A program made the position numbers and the translations under genes. A stretch of 64,000 nt of DNA from Phycisphaerales bacterium (GTDB lineage Bacteria > Planctomycetota > Phycisphaerae > Phycisphaerales > UBA1924), in assembly GCA_029260395.1 (NCBI GenBank), contig JAJDDJ010000002.1:145155-209154 (forward strand), in the 5' to 3' direction. This document shows positions 6,989-54,060 of this stretch, one piece after another; positions within the stretch are counted from its first letter, which is position 1; every line of letters begins with the position of its first letter. The notes under the pieces were generated by a model. The model was not told the DNA's origin, did no database searches, and worked only from the letters and a program-made list of their open reading frames with translations.

Positions 6989-7810
6989 TTGTTGAACGGG
7001 CTCGAAAGCCAACTCGACCGCGTGGTGCCGATGCTGCTCGTGCTGTTCCGCATAAGCGGGCTGTTTCTTGCGGTCCCGATGCTCAGCAGCATCAGCGTTC
7101 CGTTTCAAGCCAAGGCATTGGGTGCGCTGATCGCCACCGCTGCGATCTTCCCGTCGGTCGAAGCGTTCGCGCCCGCAGCGCCCGAGGCCTTCACATTGCT
7201 GGGCCTGGTGCCGATGGTCACCGCGGAACTGGCCATCGGATTCGTGCTTGGCGTGCTCGCGTCGCTGCCCGTGATCGCGATGCAGGCCGGCGGGCATGTC
7301 ATGGGCTTTCAGATGGGCTTGTCCATCGCTTCGGTTTACAACCCCGAGCTCGACGCTCAATCCGACCTCGTGGGCGAGCTCATGTACATCGTCGGCGTCG
7401 GCCTGTTCGCCCTGCTCGGCGGTTTCGATGTGCTGCTACTCGCGATCTTTGGCAGCTTCGAGCGCGTCCCGCTGGGCACGCTGGGCGTGCTCGGTGTCGG
7501 TGCCCCGCTCGAGGTGTACCTGGGCGTGCTCACCTCGGGCTTTGAACTGGCGCTTCGCGTCTCGACTCCGGTGACCGCGACCAGCATGCTGCTGCTGCTC
7601 GCGATGGGCTTCGTGATGAAGACCATGCCGCAAATCAACATCCTCACCGTTGGCTTTGCGATGAAGATCATGGTCGGCCTCGCCGCCATCATCGCGGGCC
7701 TGCTCATCATCACCGACGCCGGACACGAGCACACTGTCGAAGCGTTCGACGCGCTGCTCGGCTGGGTCGAGTCGCTCTCCATCCCGGCAGGAGGCACCCG
7801 TGGCCTCTGA
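6989..7810 (+). CDS. fliR: flagellar export apparatus protein FliR
   Basis: Polytopic membrane protein in the fliPQR-flhB position. FRISGLFLAVPML and GFQMGLSIASVYNP motifs. TTG start. Confidence 0.85.
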   Translation: MLNGLESQLDRVVPMLLVLFRISGLFLAVPMLSSISVPFQAKALGALIATAAIFPSVEAFAPAAPEAFTLLGLVPMVTAELAIGFVLGVLASLPVIAMQAGGHVMGFQMGLSIASVYNPELDAQSDLVGELMYIVGVGLFALLGGFDVLLLAIFGSFERVPLGTLGVLGVGAPLEVYLGVLTSGFELALRVSTPVTATSMLLLLAMGFVMKTMPQINILTVGFAMKIMVGLAAIIAGLLIITDAGHEHTVEAFDALLGWVESLSIPAGGTRGL

Positions 7811-8924
7811 CGAGATGGGCGAGAAAACCGAAGACCCAACCTCCAAGCGGCTCAACGAGGCCCGCGACCGAGGCCAGGTCGCCAAGAGCCAGGACCTGTC
7901 GGCGGCGCTCATCCTGCTCGCCGCGGTCGCGATCTTCGCTGGGCTCGGACCGCTCATCGCCAAGCGCATGATGACCGTCACCCGCGGCGGGCTGGAGTCG
8001 TTCGCCTCCGCCGATGCCATCAATCTGCTGCTCGTCGAGGATCTCATCCGCGACATCGCCCGCAGCGCCCTGTTTGCCACGCTGCCGGTCATGGTGCTGA
8101 TGTTCATCGCCGCCGCGGCAGCGAACATCAGCCAGATCGGCTTGATGTTCTCGCCCAAAGCTCTCGAACTCAAGCTCGAACGCATCAGCCCGATCGCGGG
8201 CACCAAGCGGCTCTTTAGCAAACGGAGCCTCGTCAAAACCGGCATCAACCTCGTCAAGCTCGTGGTCATGGTCACCGTTAGTGTCCTGGTCCTCATCACC
8301 CAGGCCGAGCGCGTGCTGGGAATGCCCGGCCTGACCGTCCTCACCGGAATGCTCGAAACGCTCCGCCTGCTTGCTGAACTCGCGATCATCCTTGTGCTCC
8401 TGCTGCTCGTCATGGGCCTCATCGACCTGATCTACCAGAAGTGGCAGCACAAGCAGGACCTCCGCATGTCCAAGCACGAGGTCAAAGAGGAACGCAGGTC
8501 CATGGAAGGCGACCCGCAGATCAAGGGCAGGCGGGCCCGCATGATGCAAGAGATCGCCTCCCAACGCGCGCAGGCCGAGGTGCCCCGGGCGGATGTGATC
8601 GTCACCAACCCCACGCACTATTCCGTCGCTCTGCGCTACGACTCCGCCTCCATGCGAGCCCCGCGCGTCGTCGCCAAGGGCGTCGACCATCTTGCCCTTC
8701 GCATTCGGCTCATCGCGCGAACCCACGGCGTCGCCATCGTCGAGCGCCCGCCGCTGGCGCGCGGCCTGTACTTCGGTGTCGACGTTGGCCGAGAAGTGCC
8801 CGCCGAGTTCTACGAGGCCGTCGCCGAGGTGCTCGCGTTCGTCTACCGCGTCGAGCAAGACGCAGATCGAGCCGCCAAACAAGCCAACCAGCCCGTCCGC
8901 CCGCCCGTGGTCGGTGCCGCTTAA
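7800..8924 (+). CDS. flhB: flagellar export switch protein FlhB
   Basis: N-terminus EKTEDPTSKRLNEARDRGQVAKSQDL and the NPTH autocleavage site (VIVTNPTHYSVAL). Confidence 0.9.
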   Translation: MASDEMGEKTEDPTSKRLNEARDRGQVAKSQDLSAALILLAAVAIFAGLGPLIAKRMMTVTRGGLESFASADAINLLLVEDLIRDIARSALFATLPVMVLMFIAAAAANISQIGLMFSPKALELKLERISPIAGTKRLFSKRSLVKTGINLVKLVVMVTVSVLVLITQAERVLGMPGLTVLTGMLETLRLLAELAIILVLLLLVMGLIDLIYQKWQHKQDLRMSKHEVKEERRSMEGDPQIKGRRARMMQEIASQRAQAEVPRADVIVTNPTHYSVALRYDSASMRAPRVVAKGVDHLALRIRLIARTHGVAIVERPPLARGLYFGVDVGREVPAEFYEAVAEVLAFVYRVEQDADRAAKQANQPVRPPVVGAA

Positions 8925-8948: not shown

Positions 8949-11105
8949 GTGGCCAAGCCCCCCGCAACTAAAATGGCACCCAAGCCGACCGCTGAACTCC
9001 CGCAATGGCTGCTCAAGCTCAGCGCCCAGCGTGAGCTGATCGCCCCCATCGGCTTTGTCATGCTCCTAGGCGTGATCCTCGTGCCGCTGCCCCCGATGGT
9101 GCTCGACCTGCTCATCAGCCTCAACATCGCGCTCAGCGTGATCGTCCTGCTGACCACCATCTACATGAAGCGGCCGCTCGAGTTCAGCGTCTTCCCCTCG
9201 CTGCTGCTCGCGACGACCATGTTCCGCCTTGTGCTCAACATCGCTTCCACCCGCCTCATTCTCAGCGCGGATGCCTCAACCCCAGAGGAGGCGATGGGTG
9301 TCGCTGGCAAGGTCATCAGCGCCTTCGGAGCGTTTGTCGCTGGCGACTCGCTGTTCGTCGGCGTGGTCATTGCCACCATCATCCTCATTGTCCAGTTTGT
9401 TGTCGTGACCAAGGGTGCCACCCGCGTCAGCGAGGTTGCCGCCCGCTTCACGCTCGATGCCATGCCCGGCAAGCAGATGGCGATCGACTCCGATCTCAAC
9501 GCAGGACTGATCGACGAGAACGAGGCCCGCACCCGTCGCGAAGAAATCCGCCAGGAAGCAGACTTCTTCGGCGCCATGGACGGCTCCAGCAAGTTCGTCC
9601 GGGGCGATGCCATCGCGGGCATTCTCATCCTTGTCATCAACATCATCGGCGGGTTTGCGGTGGGGGCCATCTCCAAGGGCTGGCCCGTCGGCCAGACCGC
9701 CGAGGTCTTCACGACGCTGACCATCGGCGACGGCCTCACCAGCCAGATCCCCAGCTTCATCATCTCGATCGCGGCGGCCCTCATCGTCACCCGCTCGGGT
9801 TCCAAAGAGAACCTCGGCGAGGAGTTCGCCGGCCAACTCACCAGCCAGCCGCGGGGTCTGGTCATCACAGCCGGTTTCCTCGCGGCGCTCTCGTTCACGC
9901 CGCTGCCCACCGTCCCGCTGCTTGTGACTTCGGCCGCACTGGCGGGCATCGCCTACAGCCTCCGTCGAACCGCCCGGCACAAAGAAGAGCAGGCCTCCAT
10001 CAAGCAGTCCTCAGAAGCCCAGAGCGCCTCTGCTCCGCCGCCCATCGAGACCCTGCTCAAGGTGGACACACTCGAACTCGAAGTCGGCTACGGCATCGTC
10101 CCACTCATCGATAAGAACCAAGGCGGCGACCTGCTCGATCGCATCAACGCCATCCGACGCCAACTCGCGGTCGAGCTCGGGCTCGTCATGCCTCCCGTTC
10201 GCATACGTGACAACATGCAGCTCAAATCAAGCGAGTACCGCATCAAGGTGCGAGGGGCCGAGGTCGCCCGATCGCACGTCTACCCCGACATGCTCATGGC
10301 GATGGACCCGGGCATCGCCACGGGCACCCTTGAAGGCGAACCCACCACCGAGCCCGCGTTCGGGCTGAAGGCCATGTGGATCAACCCCCAGCTCCGCCAG
10401 CGGGCCGAGACCCTTAACTACACCGTCGTTGACGCCACCAGCGTGATGGCCACGCATCTCACTGAGCTCGTCAAACAGCACGCCAGCGAGCTGCTCACCC
10501 GCGAAGAAGTCAACAACCTGATCGAGGGCCTCAAGACCCGCGCCCCCAAGCTTTGCGAGGAAGCGATCCCGGCCATCGTCAAGCCCGCCGATCTCCAACG
10601 CGTGCTCCACAATCTCCTCCGCGAGCGTGTCCCGGTCCGCGACATGGAGACCATCGTCGAGACCCTCGCCGACTGGGCGCCCCGCAGCAAAGACATGGAC
10701 ATCCTCACCGAGTACACCCGCAACGCCCTTCGAAGATCCATCTGCGAGCAGCACGCGGTCTCGCAAGACGGCGTACCCAGCCTCGTCTGTGTTACGCTCG
10801 ACCCGAGCTTCGAGGACCAGGTCTCGGCGTACATCGATCGAGGCACCAGCGGCACCACAGTCTCGATGCCCGCCCGCGTGGCCGCCGAACTCGCAGGCCG
10901 AGTCGTCCGGGCGCTCAAGCCGCTCGTCGATGCCGGACATCCACCGCTTGTGCTCGCCTCGCCCCAGGTTCGTGGCCCCGTCTGGCAGATGCTCGAACCT
11001 CACATCAAGTCCGTCGTCGTCCTCGGCTACAACGAGGTGGTCGCGGGAGTCGAGATCGAGTCCCACGGCCTGGTCACCCTTCAGCAAGAAACCGCCGCCG
11101 CATGA
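8949..11105 (+). CDS. flhA: flagellar export gate protein FlhA
   Basis: 718 aa. Conserved FHIPEP region (FVAGDSLFVGVVIATIILIVQFVVVTKGATRVSEVAARFTLDAMPGKQMAIDSDL) and a cytoplasmic C-terminal domain. Confidence 0.95.
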   Translation: MAKPPATKMAPKPTAELPQWLLKLSAQRELIAPIGFVMLLGVILVPLPPMVLDLLISLNIALSVIVLLTTIYMKRPLEFSVFPSLLLATTMFRLVLNIASTRLILSADASTPEEAMGVAGKVISAFGAFVAGDSLFVGVVIATIILIVQFVVVTKGATRVSEVAARFTLDAMPGKQMAIDSDLNAGLIDENEARTRREEIRQEADFFGAMDGSSKFVRGDAIAGILILVINIIGGFAVGAISKGWPVGQTAEVFTTLTIGDGLTSQIPSFIISIAAALIVTRSGSKENLGEEFAGQLTSQPRGLVITAGFLAALSFTPLPTVPLLVTSAALAGIAYSLRRTARHKEEQASIKQSSEAQSASAPPPIETLLKVDTLELEVGYGIVPLIDKNQGGDLLDRINAIRRQLAVELGLVMPPVRIRDNMQLKSSEYRIKVRGAEVARSHVYPDMLMAMDPGIATGTLEGEPTTEPAFGLKAMWINPQLRQRAETLNYTVVDATSVMATHLTELVKQHASELLTREEVNNLIEGLKTRAPKLCEEAIPAIVKPADLQRVLHNLLRERVPVRDMETIVETLADWAPRSKDMDILTEYTRNALRRSICEQHAVSQDGVPSLVCVTLDPSFEDQVSAYIDRGTSGTTVSMPARVAAELAGRVVRALKPLVDAGHPPLVLASPQVRGPVWQMLEPHIKSVVVLGYNEVVAGVEIESHGLVTLQQETAAA

Positions 11106-15706: not shown

Positions 15707-16866
15707 CCAGCATCGTCGCGATGTTCATGCTGTTGCACGCCTGGTGGACCGCCGCCACGGCTCCCAGCGCCGAACGTGTTGAGATCACCGTGACCTTAGC
15801 GAATGGCGAGTTTGAAAGCTCGTCGTATGCCGTGTGGTTCGAGCCGCTCACATCTGAGCTGGCACTCGCTATCGGGCCTCTCGTGATCGAAGCGGGCGAA
15901 GCCGGTCTCTGGGCCGCCCACCAACGCGACCCGACGACCGTGGCGGTGCTCACGAGTGAACCCGTGCGCACGCTCGGTGCCCTCGGCGTGTACCTCCCCC
16001 CGACGCCCACGCCCGCTGCTTCTCTCGCGATGGCCCGGCCCGACGAACCGTGGCTCCCCATCCCTCAAGCCAATCGTACCACTTGGGAGGCAGCCGACAT
16101 CCTGCTCCGAGGCCCGTGGCGCATCCCTGTTGGAGTTCGGCTCACCGGCACCTGCGAAGCTGGAAGTTTGGTGGCGGTCGTTCGCTGGGGCCACGTCGAA
16201 TCGCTCACACTCACGCCAAAGACGCGAGCTGGCCAGCCGCGGGGAGTACATTCCATTGAAGTACGCGCTTCCCACCAGATCATCCGCGAGCGGGTCCGGC
16301 TGGACCGAGGCGCGGCCCGAGTCACCAGCTTATTTTCACTGCGGCCTCTGGGGCCAGCCATCGGCCGTGGCCAGCGCATCCCGCACGGGCTAACCATCAA
16401 CGATGGTGAACGCCCCGCTCGTTACGACGAGCTGCCTTGGCCGGACAACGCCAACACCCGGCTGACCGTCATCGTGCGCGCCGATGCCATCGAAGCACAA
16501 GCCACGCTGCTTGCTGAGCTCGATTCGATCCTCGCCGAAGTAAGCCAACAGCTCGCCGGTGATGGCTTCACACCCATCGCCTTGCTCGACGGGCCTATAA
16601 CGGCGGACCCCGCTTCGCGCGCACGCTCGGCCGCCGAAGCACTCAAAGGTGCTAAAGCCTTTGCGGGCGTGTACGCGATCACCGATCAGCGCTTGCTCAT
16701 CGAGCGCATGGAGCAACAGCCCGGCCAGCAGCGCAGCCGGGCCATCGCTGTTCTTGCGGGCAGGGACGGCATCATCCGTTCAGGTCTCTCGCTCGACGGC
16801 GACCGCGATGCGGTGCGATCGGCACTGATCGATGCGATGAGGTCCGACTCGGCACGGGGCCGCTGA
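15703..16866 (+). CDS. hypothetical protein (N-terminal hydrophobic/signal-like segment)
   Basis: ATG 15703 overlaps the folK stop (ATGA). GC3-rich frame. No family recognised. Confidence 0.5.
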   Translation: MTSIVAMFMLLHAWWTAATAPSAERVEITVTLANGEFESSSYAVWFEPLTSELALAIGPLVIEAGEAGLWAAHQRDPTTVAVLTSEPVRTLGALGVYLPPTPTPAASLAMARPDEPWLPIPQANRTTWEAADILLRGPWRIPVGVRLTGTCEAGSLVAVVRWGHVESLTLTPKTRAGQPRGVHSIEVRASHQIIRERVRLDRGAARVTSLFSLRPLGPAIGRGQRIPHGLTINDGERPARYDELPWPDNANTRLTVIVRADAIEAQATLLAELDSILAEVSQQLAGDGFTPIALLDGPITADPASRARSAAEALKGAKAFAGVYAITDQRLLIERMEQQPGQQRSRAIAVLAGRDGIIRSGLSLDGDRDAVRSALIDAMRSDSARGR

Positions 16867-16909
16867 GAGACAAGAGCCGGAAAGCAGCCGAAAGAAAGTG
16901 TGAGGCGGC

Positions 16910-17935
16910 TCAGCTCGCCTCAGCCCGAGGGTGGGCGTTGCGGTAGCTGTCTCGCAAGCGCTGGGCGGTCAGGTGGGTGTAGACCTGCGTGGTGCTGAGC
17001 GACTGGTGCCCGAGCAGTTCCTGCACGCTTCGCAGGTCCGCTCCGTTGTCGAGCAGGTGCGTCGCGAAGCTATGCCGAAGCGTGTGCGGGCTGATCGAGG
17101 GATCCAGACCCACCGAGCGCAGGTACTTGTCGAGCTTGCGGCGGACCGAGCGCGAACTCAGACGCTTGCCGTGCTTGTTGACAAAAAGCGGCGTGGTCGG
17201 GCTGGCGCTACCCATCGCGGCGGCGTACCGGGCATCCTGGTGCAGCAGCTCGAGATACCGGTTGATCGCGTGGATCGCGTGGCGGCCCATCGGGACCATG
17301 CGTTCCTTCTTGCCCTTGCCGCGGACTCGCAACGATTCGGTCTCGATGTCTAAGTCGCCCACGTTCAGATCGACCAATTCGCTAACGCGGAGGCCGGTCG
17401 AGTAGAGCGTTTCGAGCATGGCCCGGTCGCGCCGGCCCAGCACGTCCGTATCAGACGGGGCAGCCAGAAGCTGCTCGACCTGCTCGACCGTGATCGCCTT
17501 GGGCAAACGCTTGTTCTGCCTGGGCGTTCGGATGAGGGTCATCGGGTTGGTTACGGCAAAGCCCCGACGCTCGGCCCACTTGTAGAACGATCGCAGCGTC
17601 GCGATCTTGCGGGCCACTGTGGCAGCCGAGTAGTTCTGCTCATCAAGGAACAGGAGGTACTTACGGATCTGGTCCGCATCGGCCTCGCAGATAAGCTTGG
17701 TGAGCGTGGGCTTGGCCGAACCGTTGTTGGTGCCGTTGTTGGCCCCGTTACTAGCGGTCCGGTTCTCAAGGGCGGCACGCTCAGCGGGCTCATCAATCTC
17801 GATCCCATGCTCGGCGATCAGATGCTCGATGTGCTGGCGAAGGTCCGCGCCGTAGCAGCGGGCCGTGTATGGGCTGAAGCGGCGTTCCTCGGTGAGGTAA
17901 ACGCCGAATGCTTCGGTGAGTGGCAGCGTGGACAT
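16910..17935 (-). CDS. tyrosine recombinase, XerC/XerD family
   Basis: N-terminal SAM-like domain (FGVYLTEERRFSPYTARCYGADLRQ). Catalytic region with R...HxxR...Y (HTLRHSFATHLL, LGHQSLSTTQVYTH). AAGGAG lies before ATG 17935. Cannot distinguish xerC from xerD. Confidence 0.85.
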   Translation of the reverse strand: MSTLPLTEAFGVYLTEERRFSPYTARCYGADLRQHIEHLIAEHGIEIDEPAERAALENRTASNGANNGTNNGSAKPTLTKLICEADADQIRKYLLFLDEQNYSAATVARKIATLRSFYKWAERRGFAVTNPMTLIRTPRQNKRLPKAITVEQVEQLLAAPSDTDVLGRRDRAMLETLYSTGLRVSELVDLNVGDLDIETESLRVRGKGKKERMVPMGRHAIHAINRYLELLHQDARYAAAMGSASPTTPLFVNKHGKRLSSRSVRRKLDKYLRSVGLDPSISPHTLRHSFATHLLDNGADLRSVQELLGHQSLSTTQVYTHLTAQRLRDSYRNAHPRAEAS

Positions 17936-18177
17936 CACCGCGGGCTCCTTGCCGATCGTCTGGGCCGATCCTTGGCCAAATGGGGTCACGAAGGCAGCCG
18001 GGCAAACCCCGCTGCACACTCGTTATCGGCAGACGAATCGTCGGACTTGGGGCCCAAAGACCACTCTGGCGATAATGGCCCAAATGGGTCCAAGAACTAC
18101 CGCCTTGGAGGCCAGATCCCGGGTCGGCAAGGCCGATTCTGCGCACCCGTCGCCGACTCAAGATTATCGAGGTTGTA

Positions 18178-47954: not shown

Positions 47955-48042
47955 GGTGCCATGCTATTCGCCCCTGGCGAAGAATTATCGCCAGGATGGT
48001 GAACCGGCCCGCGTCGGGCGGCGACTGGATGCTGAGCACACC

Positions 48043-48609
48043 ATGAAACGCACCGCCGCACAAGTCGCTGAAGAACTCCTCGTGCTCCGCACGCAGGCGG
48101 GCGACGAGGACTCGTTGCGGCTGTTGGTTCGGCTCTGGACGCCGAGGCTCGTTCGGCACGCGGCCCGGCTTGTGCGGGATGTGCACTTGGCACGGGACGC
48201 GGTGCAGGAAGCATGGGTGGCGATCGCGTCAGGCGTGCGAAGGCTCGACGATCCAGCGCTGTTCGGGCCGTGGGCGTACCGGATCGTGCACCACAAGGGC
48301 GTGGACATGGTCCGCCGAGAGAGCCGGCACGCTTCGGCTGTGCGGCGGTCTGCACGGGCGGAAGCACCATCCAAGAACGAATCGCCGATCGAGCGACACG
48401 AAGACGGCGAGCCGCTTCGAGCTGCGCTTCGGGCGATGGAAGCCGAGCAGCGGGCGATGTTGTGCCTGTTCTACATCGATGAACTCACCGTCAGCCAGCT
48501 CGCGGTGGTGCTGGGCGTGCCGTCCGGCACGGTCAAGAGCCGACTGTTCAATGCACGCAAGCAACTCAAACAGAGCCTCCCACGAGAGACCCAAGGAGAA
48601 TCGCCATGA
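48043..48609 (+). CDS. ECF-type RNA polymerase sigma factor
   Basis: Region 2 (DAVQEAWVAIASGVRRL...WAYRIVHHKGVDMVRR) and region 4 (MLCLFYIDELTVSQLAVVLGVPSGTVKSRLFNARKQL). ATG 48043. Confidence 0.85.
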   Translation: MKRTAAQVAEELLVLRTQAGDEDSLRLLVRLWTPRLVRHAARLVRDVHLARDAVQEAWVAIASGVRRLDDPALFGPWAYRIVHHKGVDMVRRESRHASAVRRSARAEAPSKNESPIERHEDGEPLRAALRAMEAEQRAMLCLFYIDELTVSQLAVVLGVPSGTVKSRLFNARKQLKQSLPRETQGESP

Positions 48610-48983
48610 GAAACCTCGACGACAGCATCAAGCAGGCTTTGGAGCAGGAAGACCGGGAATGGTTCGATTCGCTCGCAGAGCCATCGCCGCTGGGCCAGGT
48701 GCTCGATAGCTTCAAGTCCCGCAACCGGCTGATGATCGCCGTCTCGATGGTATTCGGGCTGGTGATGACCGCGCTGTCGTTCTGGTTCGCGTTCCGGATG
48801 TTCCAGGCCGGCGACGTTCGGACCACCGTGCTGTGGTCGGCGGGGCTGGTCCTCGCCATCCACGGGATCAGCATGATGAAGCTGTGGTACTTCATGGAGC
48901 TGCAGAAGAACACGACCATCCGCGAGATCAAGCGCGTCGAGCTGCAAGTCGCGCGACTTCAGTCAAAGCTCAATGGGCCATGA
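48606..48983 (+). CDS. two-TM membrane protein co-transcribed with the ECF sigma factor (candidate anti-sigma/partner)
   Basis: ATGA overlap with the sigma gene. TM stretches LMIAVSMVFGLVMTALSFWFAF and VLWSAGLVLAIHGISMM. The function call is positional inference. Confidence 0.6.
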   Translation: MRNLDDSIKQALEQEDREWFDSLAEPSPLGQVLDSFKSRNRLMIAVSMVFGLVMTALSFWFAFRMFQAGDVRTTVLWSAGLVLAIHGISMMKLWYFMELQKNTTIREIKRVELQVARLQSKLNGP

Positions 48984-49125
48984 ACGATGGCTCCACCCGT
49001 GCAAGGCGGGGTCTCTGCCTTGGTGCCACCGCTGGCTTGTGCAGCGGTGGCGGCTTTGTGGCACATCGCACCGGCTGCCCCCCATCAAGCTGCCAGTGCC
49101 ACCCGGGCATGCGAAGACTCTTCCT

Positions 49126-49160
49126 CCCTCTCCCGCGCCCCGTGGGAGAGGGTCTTTTCT
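49126..49160 (+). terminator. candidate intrinsic terminator in the convergent gap
   Basis: CCCTCTCCC-gcgccccgt-GGGAGAGGG (9-bp stem) followed by TCTTTTCT. A second 9-bp hairpin (CCACCGCTG/CAGCGGTGG) lies at 49026-49050. Confidence 0.45.
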
Positions 49161-49175
49161 CCGCCCACTGCCGTC

Positions 49176-50567
49176 TTACGGGCACGGCCCGATGAGGCCG
49201 AGCAAGGCGAGGAAGTCGCCGAAGCTCACCATGCCGTCGTAACCGATGATGCCGAAGTCGTCGGCGATGTCGCCCGTGCAGCCGGGCACGCCGCGGGGGC
49301 AAGGTCCGACGAGCCCGAGCATCGCAAGAAAATCGCCGAAGCTGACCATGCCATCACTGCCGAGCGTGCCGAAGTCGTCAGCGATATCGCCGTAGCATGG
49401 CGCAGCGGGGAGTTCGAAGGTATAGGCCGCGCCAGATTCCTCGCCCGCGTACTCGGCGCGAGGTGCCCCGATGATCGCGACGCCGTCGGAGAGTCCTACT
49501 GACCTGCCGGCGTTGCCGAACACCCAAAGGTCCGCAAGATCAGACGACTCGAGCCGATACAGCCACTGCCCGGTGCCAGCGTCGAATGCGTGAGCCGCAC
49601 CCTCAACGCCATCACCGCCCCATGCCTCGCCAACGAGGATGATGTCGCCGGATACTGCAACGGACGAACCGAATTCGGCCTGTGCGTGGACTCCGGGCCT
49701 AGAAAGCTCAAAGAGCCACTGGCCCGTGGAGGCGTCGAATACATGCGCAGAACCATGGGTGTTGTTCGCTCCAGTTCCAACCACCGCCGTCGTCTCGGAG
49801 ATCGCCACGGAATAGCCGAAATTGCGAGCATTCCCCGAGTCTGGGATGAGCTCGAAGAGCTGCTGGCCGGTCGTGGCATCAAAGACATATGCCGCTTCGC
49901 CGTCGAGGCCTCGTGTACCGACAACTACGGTGGTCCCCGAAATGGCTACGGAGGAGCCGAACTGACTGTGGTCCGCGGCATCTGACGCGGTCAGCTTGAA
50001 GAGCTGCTGGCCGGTGGTGGTGTCAATGACGTATGCCGCGCCGGTGCCGAAGCCTATGCCCGCGTCGTCAAATCGCGCGCCCACGACAGCAATGGTGCCA
50101 GAGATCGCCACGGAAAAGCCGAAATGTTCGCTGAGCGCTCCGTCACCCGCGCTGAACTTGCGGAGCTGCTGGCCGGTCGTCGTGTCGAAGAGGTACGCCA
50201 CGCCAGCACCGTCATCGTTCTGGCTCGCATAGGGTGCTCCGACAATAGCGGTAGTGCCGTCGATGGCCACGGACAAGCCGAAACTGTCGCCCTGGCTCAG
50301 GTCGGAAGGGATGAGCTTGAAGAGCTGCTGGCCGGTGGTCATGTCAAAGACGTAGACAGCGCCATTCTCGACAACGTAACCGTCAATATGGCCGTCGCCG
50401 TACGCCCCGACGATGGCGGTGGTGCCGGAGACACCCACGGAAAAGCCGAAGTGGTCATCCGCCGCGGTATCAGTTCCCAGGAGCCTGAAATCCTCTGTGA
50501 GCTGTCCGCTGGCGAGGGGGGCGGCGGTAGCAAAGCTCAGGGCGATCGTCGCATACGTCAGTTTCAT
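49176..50567 (-). CDS. secreted FG-GAP-like seven-bladed beta-propeller protein with two C-terminal Cys-bounded dockerin-like modules
   Basis: Signal peptide. Six or seven repeats of FG.SVA.SG.TA.VGA...GAAYVFD..TGQQLFKL. Tandem modules C.GDIADDFG..G.DGMVSFGDFLA.LGL.GPCP occur twice at the C-terminus. Confidence 0.85.
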   Translation of the reverse strand: MKLTYATIALSFATAAPLASGQLTEDFRLLGTDTAADDHFGFSVGVSGTTAIVGAYGDGHIDGYVVENGAVYVFDMTTGQQLFKLIPSDLSQGDSFGLSVAIDGTTAIVGAPYASQNDDGAGVAYLFDTTTGQQLRKFSAGDGALSEHFGFSVAISGTIAVVGARFDDAGIGFGTGAAYVIDTTTGQQLFKLTASDAADHSQFGSSVAISGTTVVVGTRGLDGEAAYVFDATTGQQLFELIPDSGNARNFGYSVAISETTAVVGTGANNTHGSAHVFDASTGQWLFELSRPGVHAQAEFGSSVAVSGDIILVGEAWGGDGVEGAAHAFDAGTGQWLYRLESSDLADLWVFGNAGRSVGLSDGVAIIGAPRAEYAGEESGAAYTFELPAAPCYGDIADDFGTLGSDGMVSFGDFLAMLGLVGPCPRGVPGCTGDIADDFGIIGYDGMVSFGDFLALLGLIGPCP

Positions 50568-50665
50568 CGCGGGCTCCTCACAGGGGCGGGGGGTTTGAAC
50601 GCCCAGCCTACCCGAAGCGGCGGGTCCGGCTCTAGGGCTTTTTACTCGCTTTGATGCCGCATTGG

Positions 50666-50938
50666 AGCCACCTGATGGGCCGTCAGGCCACCCTGATGCA
50701 GCATCAGGTCCACCGGACAGAGCATCAGGTCAACCGGATGGAGCATCAGGTCCACCAGATGGAGCATCTGGTCAACCTGCAGCTCTTGCAGGCTGGCCTA
50801 CAGCTCTTGTAGGTCAAGCAACAACGAGCGTAGAGCAACCACACACGACCGTAGAGGGCTCTATCACTCTCGTATAGCAGCGCACGATGACCGTAGAGCA
50901 GCGCACAACGACCGTAAAGCAACCAACAACAACCCTCG
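50666..50938. repeat. array of 13 exactly phased 21-nt units; units 0-6 are CC...GG stem-loops and units 7-12 are direct repeats
   Basis: Hand alignment. Unit n starts at 50666+21n. Hairpin 5' arms start at 50671, 50692, 50713, 50734, 50755, 50776 and 50797. See findings. Confidence 0.9.
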
Positions 50939-51028
50939 ACGGCACAAAAACGAACTCCCAATGAGTGATCGGCAACGTTCGTTCAAGTGATGGAGCGTCC
51001 GCGTCGATCAGGGCGAGCGAAGAACGAC

Positions 51029-51079
51029 GGGCCAGATGCCCATCCCACTGGAAGAACACGGGCGGGACGCCCGTGCCAC
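51029..51079. repeat. two copies of a 20-nt hairpin motif (GGGCCAGATGCCCATCCCAC, GGGCGGGACGCCCGTGCCAC)
   Basis: Copies at 51029-51048 and 51060-51079. The second extends to a perfect CACGGGCG-GGA-CGCCCGTG hairpin. Confidence 0.75.
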
Positions 51080-51282
51080 AAGCAGCGGCCCATCGCTCAC
51101 GCTCAGGGCTCCTTCTTCACAAGGTCCCCTCTTCCTCGATGCCCACTGAGCCCACCATCTCTGTGGTGAAGCTTCTTGAAGAGGCCATGGGGCTCCCGCC
51201 CCGGGCTCGAAAGCAAGCACGCTCTCCTCGGCGGGCTCTGCGTCTTCGCTCAGCGTCGCTGCGTTCGGGATCACCACTCGAT

Positions 51283-51302
51283 GGGCAAGATGCCCGTCCC
51301 AC
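51283..51302. repeat. third copy of the 20-nt hairpin motif (GGGCAAGATGCCCGTCCCAC)
   Basis: Same GGGC-N-RGA-Y-GCCC-RT-SCCAC pattern, 65 nt upstream of the methyltransferase ATG. Confidence 0.7.
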
Positions 51303-51367
51303 CGCAGGCGGCTCAACCCGCTGGCGGCCAAGGGCGTACGATCGGTTCTCACGCACGGAGGAGCCAA

Positions 51368-52540
51368 ATGGCCGACGATCAGCAGCAAGCCCCCCCCCAG
51401 CCGGCCGACTCATCCCCAAGTGCCGACGCCCGCAAGCCGGTCGTGCCCGCGGCGGCGGCACCTCTGCCGAGGATGCTCGGGGCGCTGCCGGGGGATCTGC
51501 GGGCCAAGCTCCGCGAGCGGCTGCGGGGCACCTTCGACCAGTTCTTCGATACCTACCTGGAGCCGTGGTACCTCCGGCGCCAGCAGTTCGCCAAGCAGCA
51601 GCCGGACAAGACGCTGGACTACTACTACGAGGCCCGGTGGGCGCTCGAGCAGCTCTACTCGCCCTTTAGCGATGCCAAGCGCAACCCGGTCAAGGCGTTC
51701 GAGAAGCACTACGTGATCCCCAAGGCCGAGCCCAACGGCCCGGTCGATCCGGTCGACGGCCTGCCGATCGTGCCGACCTCGATGTGCACGCCCTTCCACG
51801 CGAAAGACTCGGCCACGCTGTTGCAAGTCGGGCGGGACAACGTCGCCAAGATGCGGACGGTCCTCCGCGACGGCAAGGCCAAGGGCGGCGACGGCGACCT
51901 GTCGCCCGACAGCAGGATCCTCGACTTCGGCTGCTACTGCGGCAACATGATGCGCGCTCTGGGCGAGTTCACGGACGAGGGCGAGGTGTGGGGCGCTGAC
52001 CTTGATGGCGACCCTGTGACGTGGGCGATGACGCACCTGACGCCCAAGTACAGGTTCATGTTCACGAGCTCTTCGGCGCACCTGCCGTTCGAGGACCGGT
52101 ACTTCGACCTGATCTACTGCGGCAGCGTCTTCAGCCACATCGAAGCGCCCGATGCGTGGCTCGCCGAGCTGTCGCGGATCCTGCGGCCCGGCGGGCAGCT
52201 GTACGTCACGATGATCGATAAGCCCGCGCTGGCGAAGTACATCAAGGAATGGCCGGACGTATCCATCGCGCGCGAGGCCACGGGCTTCATGACCAAAGAG
52301 CAGCTCGAGAGCGACTACGCGCAGATGGTCATCAACCGTTCGCCGTGGCAGCACGCGATCTTCGACCGCGAGTTCTTCCTGAACAAGGCGCGCCAGACGT
52401 TCGATGTGGTGAGCGTGGCACCGTTCGTGTACAGCTACCAGACCGCGGTGCTGCTGACCAAGCGGGATACCGCACGCCGGCGGCCGGCCGCGAACACCCA
52501 GGCTGAGATCAAGCCCGCGGGCGCTACCGCTGGGGTGTAG
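51368..52540 (+). CDS. class I SAM-dependent methyltransferase with a about 190-aa N-terminal extension
   Basis: Motif I region RILDFGCYCGNMM and post-I/II YFDLIYCGSVFSHI...LRPGGQLYVT. GGAGGA lies before ATG 51368. Confidence 0.8.
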   Translation: MADDQQQAPPQPADSSPSADARKPVVPAAAAPLPRMLGALPGDLRAKLRERLRGTFDQFFDTYLEPWYLRRQQFAKQQPDKTLDYYYEARWALEQLYSPFSDAKRNPVKAFEKHYVIPKAEPNGPVDPVDGLPIVPTSMCTPFHAKDSATLLQVGRDNVAKMRTVLRDGKAKGGDGDLSPDSRILDFGCYCGNMMRALGEFTDEGEVWGADLDGDPVTWAMTHLTPKYRFMFTSSSAHLPFEDRYFDLIYCGSVFSHIEAPDAWLAELSRILRPGGQLYVTMIDKPALAKYIKEWPDVSIAREATGFMTKEQLESDYAQMVINRSPWQHAIFDREFFLNKARQTFDVVSVAPFVYSYQTAVLLTKRDTARRRPAANTQAEIKPAGATAGV

Positions 52541-53102
52541 CCGGATCCGCTGGGGCAGAGGGAGCCGGTTCCGCAGGAGCTGGCTCTGCCGGTACGGGCT
52601 CGGTTGGTGCTGGTTTGGCGGGCGTTGGCTCGGCTGGCTCCGCAGCATCCGGTTCCGTTGCGGCTGGTTCGGCTTCGAGGGCTTCGCTCTCTTCCTCGCT
52701 GTCGCCGGAGATCTTCAGGAACGGGATCGTGGAATCGATGTTGTTGATCGTCTTGCGGAGGCTGGCGAGGCTCTTGTCCACGCTCGCAAGGTTTGTGTCC
52801 ACGGTGGTGAGAGTCGTGTCGACGGTCGCGAGGTTGGAGTCGACCGTCGTGAGGGTCTCGCCGATAGGCCCGAGCTTGGCATCGATCTGCGTGAGCGAGG
52901 CGTCGATGCTCTGGAGCGACTGCTCGATGGATGCGAGCTTGGTGAGCCGTTCCTCGTTGATCGACTTGAGCTGGGCATCAACGGCGACCAGCCGCTGATT
53001 GGTTGTTTGCATCTCGGCATAGATGTCGTTGACGACACATCCGGTCATGGGCAGCGAGGCCAAGAGAGCAACGAATGTCACGATGAGGCGTGCGTGTGGC
53101 AT
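52524..53102 (-). CDS. coiled-coil lipoprotein with about 10 (S/T)(V/I)DxxLx heptads and a Pro/Ala/Glu-rich tail
   Basis: Lipobox LLASLPMTGC. SIEQSLQ-SIDASLT-QIDAKLG-PIGETLT-TVDSNLA-TVDTTLT-TVDTNLA-SVDKSLA... Tail EPAATEPDAAEPAEPTPAKPAPTEPVPAEPAPAEP. Confidence 0.7.
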   Translation of the reverse strand: MPHARLIVTFVALLASLPMTGCVVNDIYAEMQTTNQRLVAVDAQLKSINEERLTKLASIEQSLQSIDASLTQIDAKLGPIGETLTTVDSNLATVDTTLTTVDTNLASVDKSLASLRKTINNIDSTIPFLKISGDSEEESEALEAEPAATEPDAAEPAEPTPAKPAPTEPVPAEPAPAEPAPSAPADPATPQR

Positions 53103-53115
53103 AGCTGCATGGTAA

Positions 53116-54060
53116 TCAGTCCGCAGGAGGGGCCGCAGATGGACCACTCAGCGGCTGGGGCGACGGGCCCTCGGGGGCGGCTTGGTCCTCTGCCGGGGGG
53201 GCGGCTGGCCGCTCGGCCCAGACGGCTCCCTGAGCGATCCACTCGCGGAGGATCTCGATATCACTTTCTTCGAGCGGGTCGTCGCCCTCGGGCATTCGAA
53301 TGTCCGGGTGTTCGCCTGTGATTGTCTGGAAAAGCAGACTCGCAACAGGATCGCCCGGCACGATGGCAGGACCGCTCTCGCCGCCCGCGAGAAGGCCTGC
53401 AGGCGTGGAGAGATCGAGGTCGGCATCGGGCCGATCACCCACGGTGTGGCAGCCCATGCACCGGTCGTAGAGCAGCGGGTAGACCGCGGTCACAAAGAAC
53501 TCACCGCGCGGATCAGCGAGCGTGATGTGTTGCTGGGGGTCTGTGCCTTCGCTGCCTTGTATGTCGTCGATGGTTACGGGGTTGGGCGTGCCCACGCCGA
53601 AGTCGTACACGAGCGAGCCACCCAGGTGCGCGGCGTACGAAGTCCAGCCCGCGCCGCCCACGGCGGCGAGCAGCGTTGCGACCTTGCTGATCTTGGCGAA
53701 GCGCGGGGCTTTGGCCAGGCCGCCCAGGCACAGCACGCTCGCGGCCAGTGCGAAGTACCAGATCTTCTCGGCGGCCTCTTCGTGCTCGTGGATCTGCTCG
53801 CGGATGGTCTGAGGCGGCGAACCGACGCGGCCCTCTGCTGGCTCGCCGCTGAGCACGCCGCCCCAAGCCGCTGCGATGAGCAAGACGTAGATGCTGAGCG
53901 TGACGACCACCGGTGCCCGTCCGAGCTTGGTGCAGAGGCTGAGTGCGGCGGGGATCAGGCCGAGCATCGCGAGCGCGACCGGAAGGTGGACGAGCGCGGC
54001 GTGTCGCATCTGCGGATCGGAGAACACATCGAACATCGAAGAAGCAGCGGGGGTCGTCAT
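53116..54060 (-). CDS. membrane protein with N-terminal multi-TM region and C-terminal Planctomycete-cytochrome-C (PSCyt1-like) domain
   Basis: Four or five TM segments, then YPLLYDRCMGCHTVG...LDLSTPAGLLAGGESGPAIVPGDPVASLLFQTI (CxxCH haem-binding motif). Confidence 0.75.
   Translation of the reverse strand: MTTPAASSMFDVFSDPQMRHAALVHLPVALAMLGLIPAALSLCTKLGRAPVVVTLSIYVLLIAAAWGGVLSGEPAEGRVGSPPQTIREQIHEHEEAAEKIWYFALAASVLCLGGLAKAPRFAKISKVATLLAAVGGAGWTSYAAHLGGSLVYDFGVGTPNPVTIDDIQGSEGTDPQQHITLADPRGEFFVTAVYPLLYDRCMGCHTVGDRPDADLDLSTPAGLLAGGESGPAIVPGDPVASLLFQTITGEHPDIRMPEGDDPLEESDIEILREWIAQGAVWAERPAAPPAEDQAAPEGPSPQPLSGPSAAPPAD

Follow-up and report, generated by a model that had tools for sequence, protein, structure and literature searches.

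The element described here is a tandem array of 21-nt units in a 64,000-nt stretch of the genome of a Phycisphaerales bacterium (contig JAJDDJ010000002.1; hereafter the window, whose numbering is used throughout). The array lies in the longest gene-free gap of the window (50568-51367, with open reading frames (ORFs) picked by the G+C content of third codon positions), 99 nt from the start of an FG-GAP repeat gene on the minus strand (50567) and, on its other side, 430 nt from the ATG of a methyltransferase gene (51368), from which it is separated by a non-coding spacer (Table 1). Unit n starts at 50666+21n. The 13 units and their phase, the seven arm starts of the leading units (50671 ... 50797), the G+C count of 157/273 and the distances across the gap, all of which had been given in an original prediction made from the letters of the window, were reproduced without change; the resulting G+C content of 57.5% compares with 65.3% for the window. 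Tandem Repeats Finder reports a period of 21/42 at 50667-50777 and a period of 21 at 50871-50934 with 0% indels, and the self-identity of the array is 0.64 at lag 21, 0.55 at lag 42 and 0.50 at lag 63, against a maximum of 0.378 at the best lag of 5-59 in 2000 shuffles. The hairpin pattern CCNGAYGNNNCRTCNGG has four matches in the window where 0.13 are expected, every one within the array, and neither hairpin nor tail units were found in the rest of the 64 kb or away from the locus in 21 + 12 kb of sequence from the relatives. This copy is known from one assembly, and the one further contig from this strain breaks off near 51053. Together with the related arrays described below, these observations establish a real, exactly phased 21-nt repeat that is inherited in a small clade of Phycisphaeraceae.

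Table 1. Features of the array locus and its surroundings (window coordinates; L001 and L137 are array-bearing relatives)
Feature	Coordinates	Strand	Basis and remarks
Whole array	50666-50938	.	13 ungapped 21-nt units; sequence layout, Tandem Repeats Finder, lag-21 self-identity
Type-A hairpin units 0-4	50671-50771	+	CCNGAYG-NNN-CRTCNGG with 4-nt linkers; missing from L001 left of 50756
Type-B hairpin units 5-6	50776-50813	+	CCTGCA/CCTACA-GCTCT-TGCAGG/TGTAGG; orthologous units in L001, related ones in L137
Tail units 7-12	50813-50938	+	Non-palindromic, A/C-rich, mostly ending CGTAG
Degenerate last unit	50939-50961	+	Ends with in-frame TGA 50959-50961
Conserved non-coding spacer	50962-51367 (406 nt)	+	From array to methyltransferase start codon; 95.3% identical to L001
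19-nt palindrome GACGGGCCAGATGCCCATC, then CCCAC	51026-51044	.	
Spacer hairpin	51056-51076		
Motif TCGCTCACGCTCAGGGCT	51093-51110	+	One copy in window and L001; 8 copies as 42-nt repeats in L137
19-nt palindrome, second copy, GATGGGCAAGATGCCCGTC, then CCCAC	51280-51298	.	
ECF sigma factor and DUF6768 genes	48043-48983 (DUF6768 48606-48983)	+	Sigma start likely 48043; Pfam; syntenic anchors in three lineages
FG-GAP repeat gene	49176-50567	-	Pfam; variable slot, unrelated genes there in L001 and L137
Class I SAM-dependent methyltransferase	51368-52540	+	Pfam; downstream of spacer

The claim that units 0-6 are inverted repeats proved stronger than originally put. When the seven hairpin units of the window and the two orthologous units of the closest relative are aligned on a 7-bp helix, 93.7% of the stem cells are paired as against 74.3% in shuffles (0/500 as high), and sliding the pairing register by 1-3 columns leaves only 30-46% paired. 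The RNA folding energies of units 0-6 are -8.4, -8.7, -1.6, -5.4, -10.0, -8.9 and -9.8 kcal/mol, respectively. The layout of units 7-12 likewise agrees with their earlier description as direct repeats without palindromes, most of them ending in CGTAG; RNA folds of tail units, at -0.8 and -2.4 kcal/mol, are essentially unfolded. Over 50813-50961 the tail has 54 A against 15 T, with an AT skew of 0.57 and a GC skew of -0.23. Both-sided changes occur at four of the seven stem pairs, and the covariation score of 0.599 compares with 0.274 in shuffles (0/500 reach the observed value), where the units of one array are to be read as non-independent events. Two further stem pairs are changed on both sides between the type-A (CCNGAYG-NNN-CRTCNGG) and type-B (CCTRCA-GCTCT-TGYAGG) units. 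The two compensatory changes singled out in the original prediction differ in their coding context: the T-A to A-T change between units 1 and 4 falls on wobble positions (CCT/CCA, TCA/TCT) of a frame open through this part of the array, and the G-C to A-T change between units 5 and 6 would alter two amino acids (Ala to Thr, Ala to Val).

The closest relative with an array, L001, is an uncultured Phycisphaeraceae metagenome-assembled genome found via the methyltransferase (89% amino-acid identity); its locus is 100% identical in seven independent assemblies, which hence add no variation. Homology to the window begins inside unit 4 (50756) and extends to the methyltransferase gene, while the FG-GAP gene and units 0-3 (48988-50755) are replaced by unrelated DNA. 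In L001, half of one type-A unit, the two type-B units and a tail of five units remain; this tail is one 21-nt unit shorter than that of the window, from which it differs by a single 21-nt indel. A third array-bearing lineage, L137/L138, was found via the DUF6768 protein (78% amino-acid identity). The order of genes ACAD, ECH x3, HMGL, ECF sigma, DUF6768, a variable gene and the array is common to the window, L001 and L137, and the 950-nt gap of L137 holds an indel-free array of eleven 21-nt units (7676-7906) followed by 42-nt hairpin repeats. Plain local alignment of the window and L137 arrays gives a score not above controls. Nevertheless, the two share GACAGAGCATCA (12 nt), GTAAAGCAAC (10 nt) and GCTCTTGTA (9 nt) on the same strand, and the offsets of GACAGAGCATC, GCTCTTGTA and GTAAAGCAAC within the 21-nt unit (8/11/17 in the window, 7/10/16 in L137) keep the same relative spacing; the shared 11-mer and 10-mer have no other occurrence in 0.99 Mb of sequence. 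Because these motifs are shared in phase and the synteny is common, we take the window and L137 arrays to be homologous and in register. Two lineages with methyltransferases 73-74% identical to that of the window (L004, L005) carry neither an array nor a homologous spacer. Relatives at 61% identity (L140, L142) have compact loci without the array.

A look at the same locus of close relatives had been proposed along with the original prediction, and both L001 and L137 indeed carry arrays with pairing-preserving substitutions. All five stem substitutions in units 5 and 6 of L001 keep pairing (T-A to G.U, G-C to A-U, A-U to G.U). Across the three lineages, the type-B pair at alignment columns 5/19 is CG in four units and GC in four, and that at columns 6/18 is CG in four, UA in three and GU in one; the type-B covariation score is reached by 0/500 shuffles, and the type-A score including L137 by 11/500. 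The basal changes in type B are T-A to C-G and C-G to G-C, and in the type-A units of L137 the two outer pairs have gone from CG to UA (CC..GG to TT..AA). The type-B loop GCTCT is identical in 10/10 units of the three lineages, the apical motifs GACAGAGCATC and GCTCTTGT are kept in the related arrays while the stem bases covary, and the core GACAGAGCATC of unit 2 is found again, in phase, in L137. What is kept is thus pairing together with the hairpin tips, and not a fixed stem sequence. The part of the original prediction that held pairing rather than sequence to be conserved stands, on the covariation within the array, L001 and L137. Selection is not a necessary conclusion from paired substitutions in palindromic DNA, since template switching during replication creates and repairs stems with multi-base 'compensatory' changes in a single event (PMC8794818).

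The strongest constraint at the locus lies next to the hairpins. Relative to L001, identity is 76% at the third codon positions of 13 flanking genes and 81-85% in three other intergenic stretches, which serve as neutral yardsticks. Against these, tail units 7-9 are 93.7% identical, units 10-13 are 88.7% identical with the 21-nt indel in addition, and the spacer is 97.2% identical over 50962-51140 and 93.8% over 51141-51367, which makes the spacer more conserved than codon positions one and two in some of the adjacent genes. It contains no ORF that is conserved in L001. Constraint on the tail and the spacer is accordingly at the level of the nucleotide and not of the codon. In a consensus fold of the plus strand of the spacer, six of 19 substitutions fall in predicted pairs and all six preserve pairing, among them one compensatory double change (G-C to U-A) and four wobble-compatible changes. 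The spacer motif TCGCTYACRCNNRGGGCT occurs once in the window (51093), once in L001 and eight times in L137, with no copy outside the locus. The strand asymmetry of the tail and the fold of the spacer are hints, not proof, of a single-stranded role of the plus strand, and we regard the spacer, on its conservation pattern, as a candidate unannotated regulatory RNA or operator region.

With a probability of roughly 0.4, we suggest that the array is a vertically inherited, modular non-coding element, specific to this locus, that acts as a single-stranded nucleic acid, probably as plus-strand RNA. The case for single-stranded action of the modules rests on the conservation of apical sequence while basal pairs covary; transcription, strand and the existence of a binding partner we infer. 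On such a model, one 21-nt module would have diversified into two families of hairpins and a family of unstructured, A/C-rich tail units, and, in the simplest case, a transcript of the plus strand would carry the array in its 5' portion and continue into the conserved 400-nt spacer. The reiterated small hairpins might offer a binding partner several copies of the same loops (GAG; GCUCU), or might give the RNA its shape or protection, and copy number would shift in exact 21-nt steps by slipped-strand mispairing between modules.

A number of observations weigh against this proposal. The hairpin section is the most dynamic and least conserved part of the array: the shared hairpin units (50759-50812) are 87% identical to L001, near the value of neutral intergenic DNA, and hairpin copy number is seven in the window and about 2.5 in L001. 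Unit 2, at -1.6 kcal/mol, is a poor, degenerate hairpin; the hairpins of L137 are weak (-2.9 and -5.3 kcal/mol), and two of its six GCTCT units do not form hairpins at all. G.T and A.C mismatches occur without strand bias (three and two single events), so that RNA is not favoured over DNA, and an array of RNA hairpins gives no reason for a strict 21-nt period. A promoter scan of the gap found no promoter-like site, and a terminator scan found a single terminator-like site on the minus strand, within shuffle level, and none on the plus strand. Inverted copies of the units that flank the arrays in L001 and L137 point to rearrangement at the level of DNA. Finally, with three array-bearing lineages only, the independent events are few.

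A more specific version of the proposal holds that the array and the spacer form an undescribed modular non-coding RNA locus of Phycisphaeraceae tied to the ECF-sigma/DUF6768 genes, in which the reiterated mini-hairpins with their fixed apical loops (GAG, GCUCU) and the A/C-rich segments would serve as a multivalent scaffold or sponge for an RNA-binding protein, with module number tuned by 21-nt slippage; we consider this version unlikely. Were the modules functional, they would constitute a novel class of regulatory RNA, or of single-stranded DNA element, assembled from repeats, in which the number of modules is a simple evolutionary knob, and they would provide a first handle on the targets of the widespread ECF-sigma/DUF6768 pair. 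To our knowledge, almost no non-coding RNAs are known from the planctomycete phylum. Were the array a mere self-maintaining palindromic minisatellite, it would still be a useful natural example of covariation-like patterns that emerge and last with no selection acting, and a warning for efforts to discover RNAs by their structure. Under either reading, the 400-nt spacer offers a concrete candidate for an unannotated regulatory element.

The main alternative is indeed that of a functionless, quasi-palindromic minisatellite, comparable to a variable-number tandem repeat (VNTR), in which units turn over by slippage, the arms are restored by template switching or gene conversion, and the period possibly derives from a former heptad-coding sequence. 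Units that abut head to tail and differ in copy number between the window and L001 are a minisatellite trait, and the exact 21-nt steps, the loss of hairpin units in L001, the near-neutral 87% identity of those that remain and the wobble mismatches without strand bias would all be expected of such a repeat; template switching that creates and repairs stems is a documented process (PMC8794818). Unrelated palindromic 21-nt arrays also exist, one with direct and inverted units (L135) and others in frame within genes (L013/L083, L053). The DNA around the arrays fits the same picture, in that the synteny break and the variable gene slot fall exactly at the array and inverted unit copies are present in both relatives. 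In L001, 2.5 reverse-complement units of the tail type, missing from the window, lie to the left of the array (9362-9411 vs 9517-9563), and inverted repeats around the hairpin units have arms of 15-19 nt that are 74-94% complementary, those with arms of 15-17 nt being 93-94% complementary. In L137, some eight 42-nt hairpin repeats (motif TCGCTYACRCNNRGGGCT) spread over 7473-8420, two inverted to the left and six direct to the right of the array, which is itself enclosed by a 74-nt inverted repeat (7519-7592 / 8120-8193, 85% complementary). What such a repeat does not readily account for is the stability of the rest: apical motifs of 10 to 12 nt stay in phase although synonymous sites are far diverged (DUF6768 78% amino-acid identity), conservation is highest in the loops, for which there is no repair template, units 7-9 and the spacer next to them show clear constraint, and there is no indel in 13 + 11 + 11 units even though the unit types differ at more than half of their positions. 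Weighing the two sides, we place this explanation on the unlikely side.

The VNTRs of mycobacteria known as MIRUs offer the nearest comparison for such a repeat. They are intergenic tandem repeats whose period is a multiple of 3, with ORFs running through them and copy numbers that vary between strains; at 40-100 bp they are longer, they are dispersed over many loci and they are not built of hairpins. The array is likewise intergenic and variable in copy number, and differs as one locus of 21-nt hairpin modules.

The 21-nt period, for which a hairpin RNA provides no explanation, corresponds to two helical turns of duplex DNA, and the array might, as the original prediction had also offered, be a row of operator- or iteron-like protein-binding sites on which a nucleoprotein complex controls the flanking promoter or promoters. 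The period is strict across unit types and lineages without indels, the hairpin units are dyad-symmetric with their variable positions symmetric about the dyad, the palindromic 19-mers of the spacer resemble operators, a divergent gene has the array some 100-200 bp upstream in both the window and L137, and an ECF sigma gene is always close by. The covariation itself tells against such sites, as changes that swap the bases of a pair (CC..GG to TT..AA; C-G to G-C) are unexpected for sequence-specific recognition of a duplex. Moreover, the conserved inner half-sites GATG/CATC have a centre-to-centre distance of 7 bp, a small spacing for a helix-turn-helix dimer, and no motif is common to the tail and hairpin units. 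The ECF sigma factor is the only conserved regulator nearby, and the promoter-like motif ascribed to it (see below) is missing from the gap; a rep, par or DnaA-box context is lacking as well. This explanation thus appears improbable to us.

A multiple of three raises the further question of whether the array is, or was, a heptad-repeat ORF on the plus strand, now a pseudogene in the window. In the frame of 50668 the heptads read PPDGPSG HPDAASG PPDRASG QPDGASG PPDGASG QPAALAG WPTALVG QATTSVE QPHTTVE GSITLV* QRTMTVE QRTTTVK QPTTTLD, so that the unit types would correspond to PPDGASG..., PTALVG... and QxTTTVE... repeats. Each 21 nt makes seven codons, without indels; units 0-4 vary at 7/7 third positions as against 4/14 others (permutation p = 0.005), lag-3 periodicity is seen, and the three codon positions have a G+C content of 70/65/37% in the array as a whole and 83/80/10% within 50700-50789. 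In L001 the homologous frame continues without a stop for 193 codons, and in L137 for about 264. The heptads of the tail ([ST]-V-E) are similar to those of a coiled-coil lipoprotein encoded nearby on the minus strand (52524-53147), in which a second repeat of 21-nt period in the window (52765-52854) gives heptads such as TVDTNLA; an alignment score of 57 is reached by 1.4% of column-permuted controls. The possibility that the array is a copy of this coiled-coil gene was rejected, as there is no similarity of DNA and the likeness of heptads is modest. The evidence from periodicity is only half as independent as it looks, because with a loop of 3 nt the palindrome pairs wobble positions with one another; the peptide P-D-G-A-S-G by itself encodes five of the seven stem pairs.

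Most of the comparative evidence runs counter to coding. Neither start codon nor ribosome-binding site nor signal peptide is conserved, and the frame of the window is broken by an in-frame TAG at 50875-50877 and by the TGA that ends the last unit. Between the window and L001 the codon changes are 4 synonymous and 13 non-synonymous, near the neutral ratio although the DNA is 94-97% conserved, and the radical changes (P to F, G to K, P to R, G to H) coincide with covarying stem pairs. Between the window and L137 the differences by codon position are 7/7/13 in a hand count, with no enrichment at third positions. Reverse-complement units lie within the L001 'ORF', the shared spacer motif falls in different frames in the window and L137, and the third-position G+C of 10-37% is far below that of all native genes (70-90%). 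A Pfam scan gave no match. An intact heptad-repeat gene elsewhere, which had been named as a possible source of the units, was not found: a word-indexed protein search returned only the L001 ORF and two chance matches of low complexity, and the 38 matches of a HMMER search against 1.84 billion representatives comprise the L001 ORF (P0086) and heterogeneous SGxPDxx or low-complexity sequences, with the tail covered by P0086 only. No true homologue, then, was found among 5.8 billion clusters or 1.84 billion representatives. A present-day gene was rejected on the stops, the missing conserved start, the ratio of codon changes and the lack of a homologue, and we hold the coding explanation as a whole, past or present, to be distinctly improbable; an ancient coding origin of the 21-nt period is possible.

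Among its candidate roles, the original prediction had offered a protein-titrating RNA of the CsrB/RsmZ type, in which case GGA hairpins would act as a sponge for CsrA. Such a role is very improbable: the small reiterated hairpins of the array include units 3 and 4, AUGGAGCAU with an apical GGA, and unit 2 with GGA in the 5' arm, but GGA lies at or near the apex in only three of seven hairpins, L001 retains one truncated AUGGAGCAU among its 2.5 hairpin units, the units of L137 (GACAGAGCAUC, GCUCUU) are without GGA, no Rfam CsrB/RsmX/Y/Z match is obtained even at E = 10, and no csrA was found among the genes examined in the 64-kb window and its relatives.

More generally, the array matches no known family of RNA, repeat or gene, as the original prediction had surmised. 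In Rfam scans with E-value limits of 10 and 1, the best matches in the gaps of the window and L137 have 10-23 bits with E >= 0.04, far below gathering scores. With sponge RNAs such as CsrB/RsmZ and CrcZ the array shares a modular build from reiterated hairpins or A/C-rich motifs and a module number that varies between relatives; it differs in that the GGA loops are not conserved, a single AAnAAnAA motif (CrcZ type) is present and no Rfam family matches. A CRISPR array was rejected, and this too agrees with the original prediction: CRISPR repeats of 23-50 nt are separated by unique spacers of similar length, whereas the 21-nt units here abut head to tail with no spacers, and there are no cas genes (Pfam, PADLOC, about 8 kb on each side). 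Elements of the REP/BIME/REPIN type are similar in being short, imperfect intergenic palindromes, sometimes in tandem, with covarying stems and roles in RNA stability or protein binding. They are, in contrast, scattered over each genome in tens to hundreds of copies and accompanied by a RAYT transposase, while the array is a single locus in strict 21-nt phase with half of its units non-palindromic. It is not REP/BIME-like because its units are not dispersed (the 64-kb window and L001 were searched), and no RAYT (IS200/IS605-like) transposase lies within about 8 kb on either side.

The ToxI RNAs of type III toxin-antitoxin systems also consist of short direct repeats in tandem upstream of a gene, transcribed as one RNA in which each repeat is a functional module. 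In those systems, a terminator hairpin comes after the repeats and the gene of the endoribonuclease toxin immediately after that (PMC8860590), whereas the array has no terminator on the plus strand and the next gene, 430 nt off, encodes a methyltransferase (a peptidase in L137). PADLOC reported no protein of a defence family, only a generic match to a methyltransferase domain. A defence or toxin-antitoxin context was hence rejected, there being neither a terminator nor a ToxN/AbiQ-type endoribonuclease gene directly downstream. Iterons and sopC centromeres resemble the array as tandem direct repeats of about two helical turns, and each sopC unit holds an inverted repeat; the array departs from them in its chromosomal housekeeping context, its covarying stems and the lack of rep, par or a DnaA box. 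No DnaA-like box occurs in 50400-51500, the locus is not a minimum of the cumulative GC skew, and on these two grounds the idea of an oriC was rejected. Neither 72,556 plasmids nor 50,697 phages gave a blastn match. Over about 8 kb to each side there are no genes of mobile elements, replication or partition, in line with the original prediction, which had noted no transposase or replication gene nearby, and the window contains no tRNA that could support the idea of an attachment site.

The neighbouring genes do not bear out the proposed link of the array to the two genes that flank it. The FG-GAP gene is gone in both relatives and the downstream gene of L137 encodes a peptidase; the array goes with the ECF-sigma/DUF6768 side. 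Between the DUF6768 stop and the array lies a variable slot (48984-50755 in the window, 8448-9413 in L001, 6382-7675 in L137), which is occupied by the FG-GAP gene (minus strand) in the window, by an unrelated 209-aa ORF (plus strand) in L001 and by an FkbM-family methyltransferase gene (minus strand) in L137, where a peptidase S9 gene lies downstream of the gap; one breakpoint of the slot falls inside unit 4 of the array. A promoter-like motif, GTGAACC-N15-GGCGACT, precedes the ECF sigma gene and is conserved in the window (47999-48030), L001, L137, L140 and L142. This motif is probably the autoregulated promoter of the sigma factor, and no copy of it is present in the gaps, whether in the array or in the spacer.

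The FG-GAP protein itself, for which an exact look-up gave no record, carries two C-terminal GDIADDFG...DGMVSFGDFLA modules that stem from a 117-nt tandem duplication (49180-49391, 1.8 copies, 78% identity). The modules look dockerin-like; a Pfam dockerin match was not obtained at E up to 0.01. In the slot of L001, at 9235-9258, a CACAGAGG(G/C) repeat is present at which three independent Logan contigs (L010-L012) all stop, and this repeat is probably dispersed and assembly-breaking.

Searches for similar arrays in metagenomes used a 1.5-unit pattern, whose matches (at least 120) are mostly due to chance. The few real 21-nt arrays among them are non-homologous, and in about half of these cases their wobble-to-wobble stem pairs are complementary; viral contigs gave a single chance match. 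A Tara Oceans contig of 783 nt (L135) holds five 21-nt units in direct orientation (TTGCCGGATGnAnnATCGGGA) and then four in inverted orientation, and the contig as a whole forms one long palindrome, which is either a natural foldback element or a chimera of assembly or amplification. In L013/L083, palindromic 21-nt units (CCTGACGgagCGTCAGG, at about 2576-2640 in L083) form an in-frame insertion in the part of an AnmK kinase gene that encodes a surface loop, and in L053 three CCCGACGatgCGTCGGG units make up the C-terminal tail of a transporter-like membrane protein, a family assigned by eye; these are examples of hairpin repeats that are tolerated inside genes. Elsewhere in the window, at about 16000-18000, the sign of the GC skew turns from negative to positive at the point where plus-strand genes give way to mostly minus-strand genes, and GC skew in this genome seems to track the orientation of genes and not replication.

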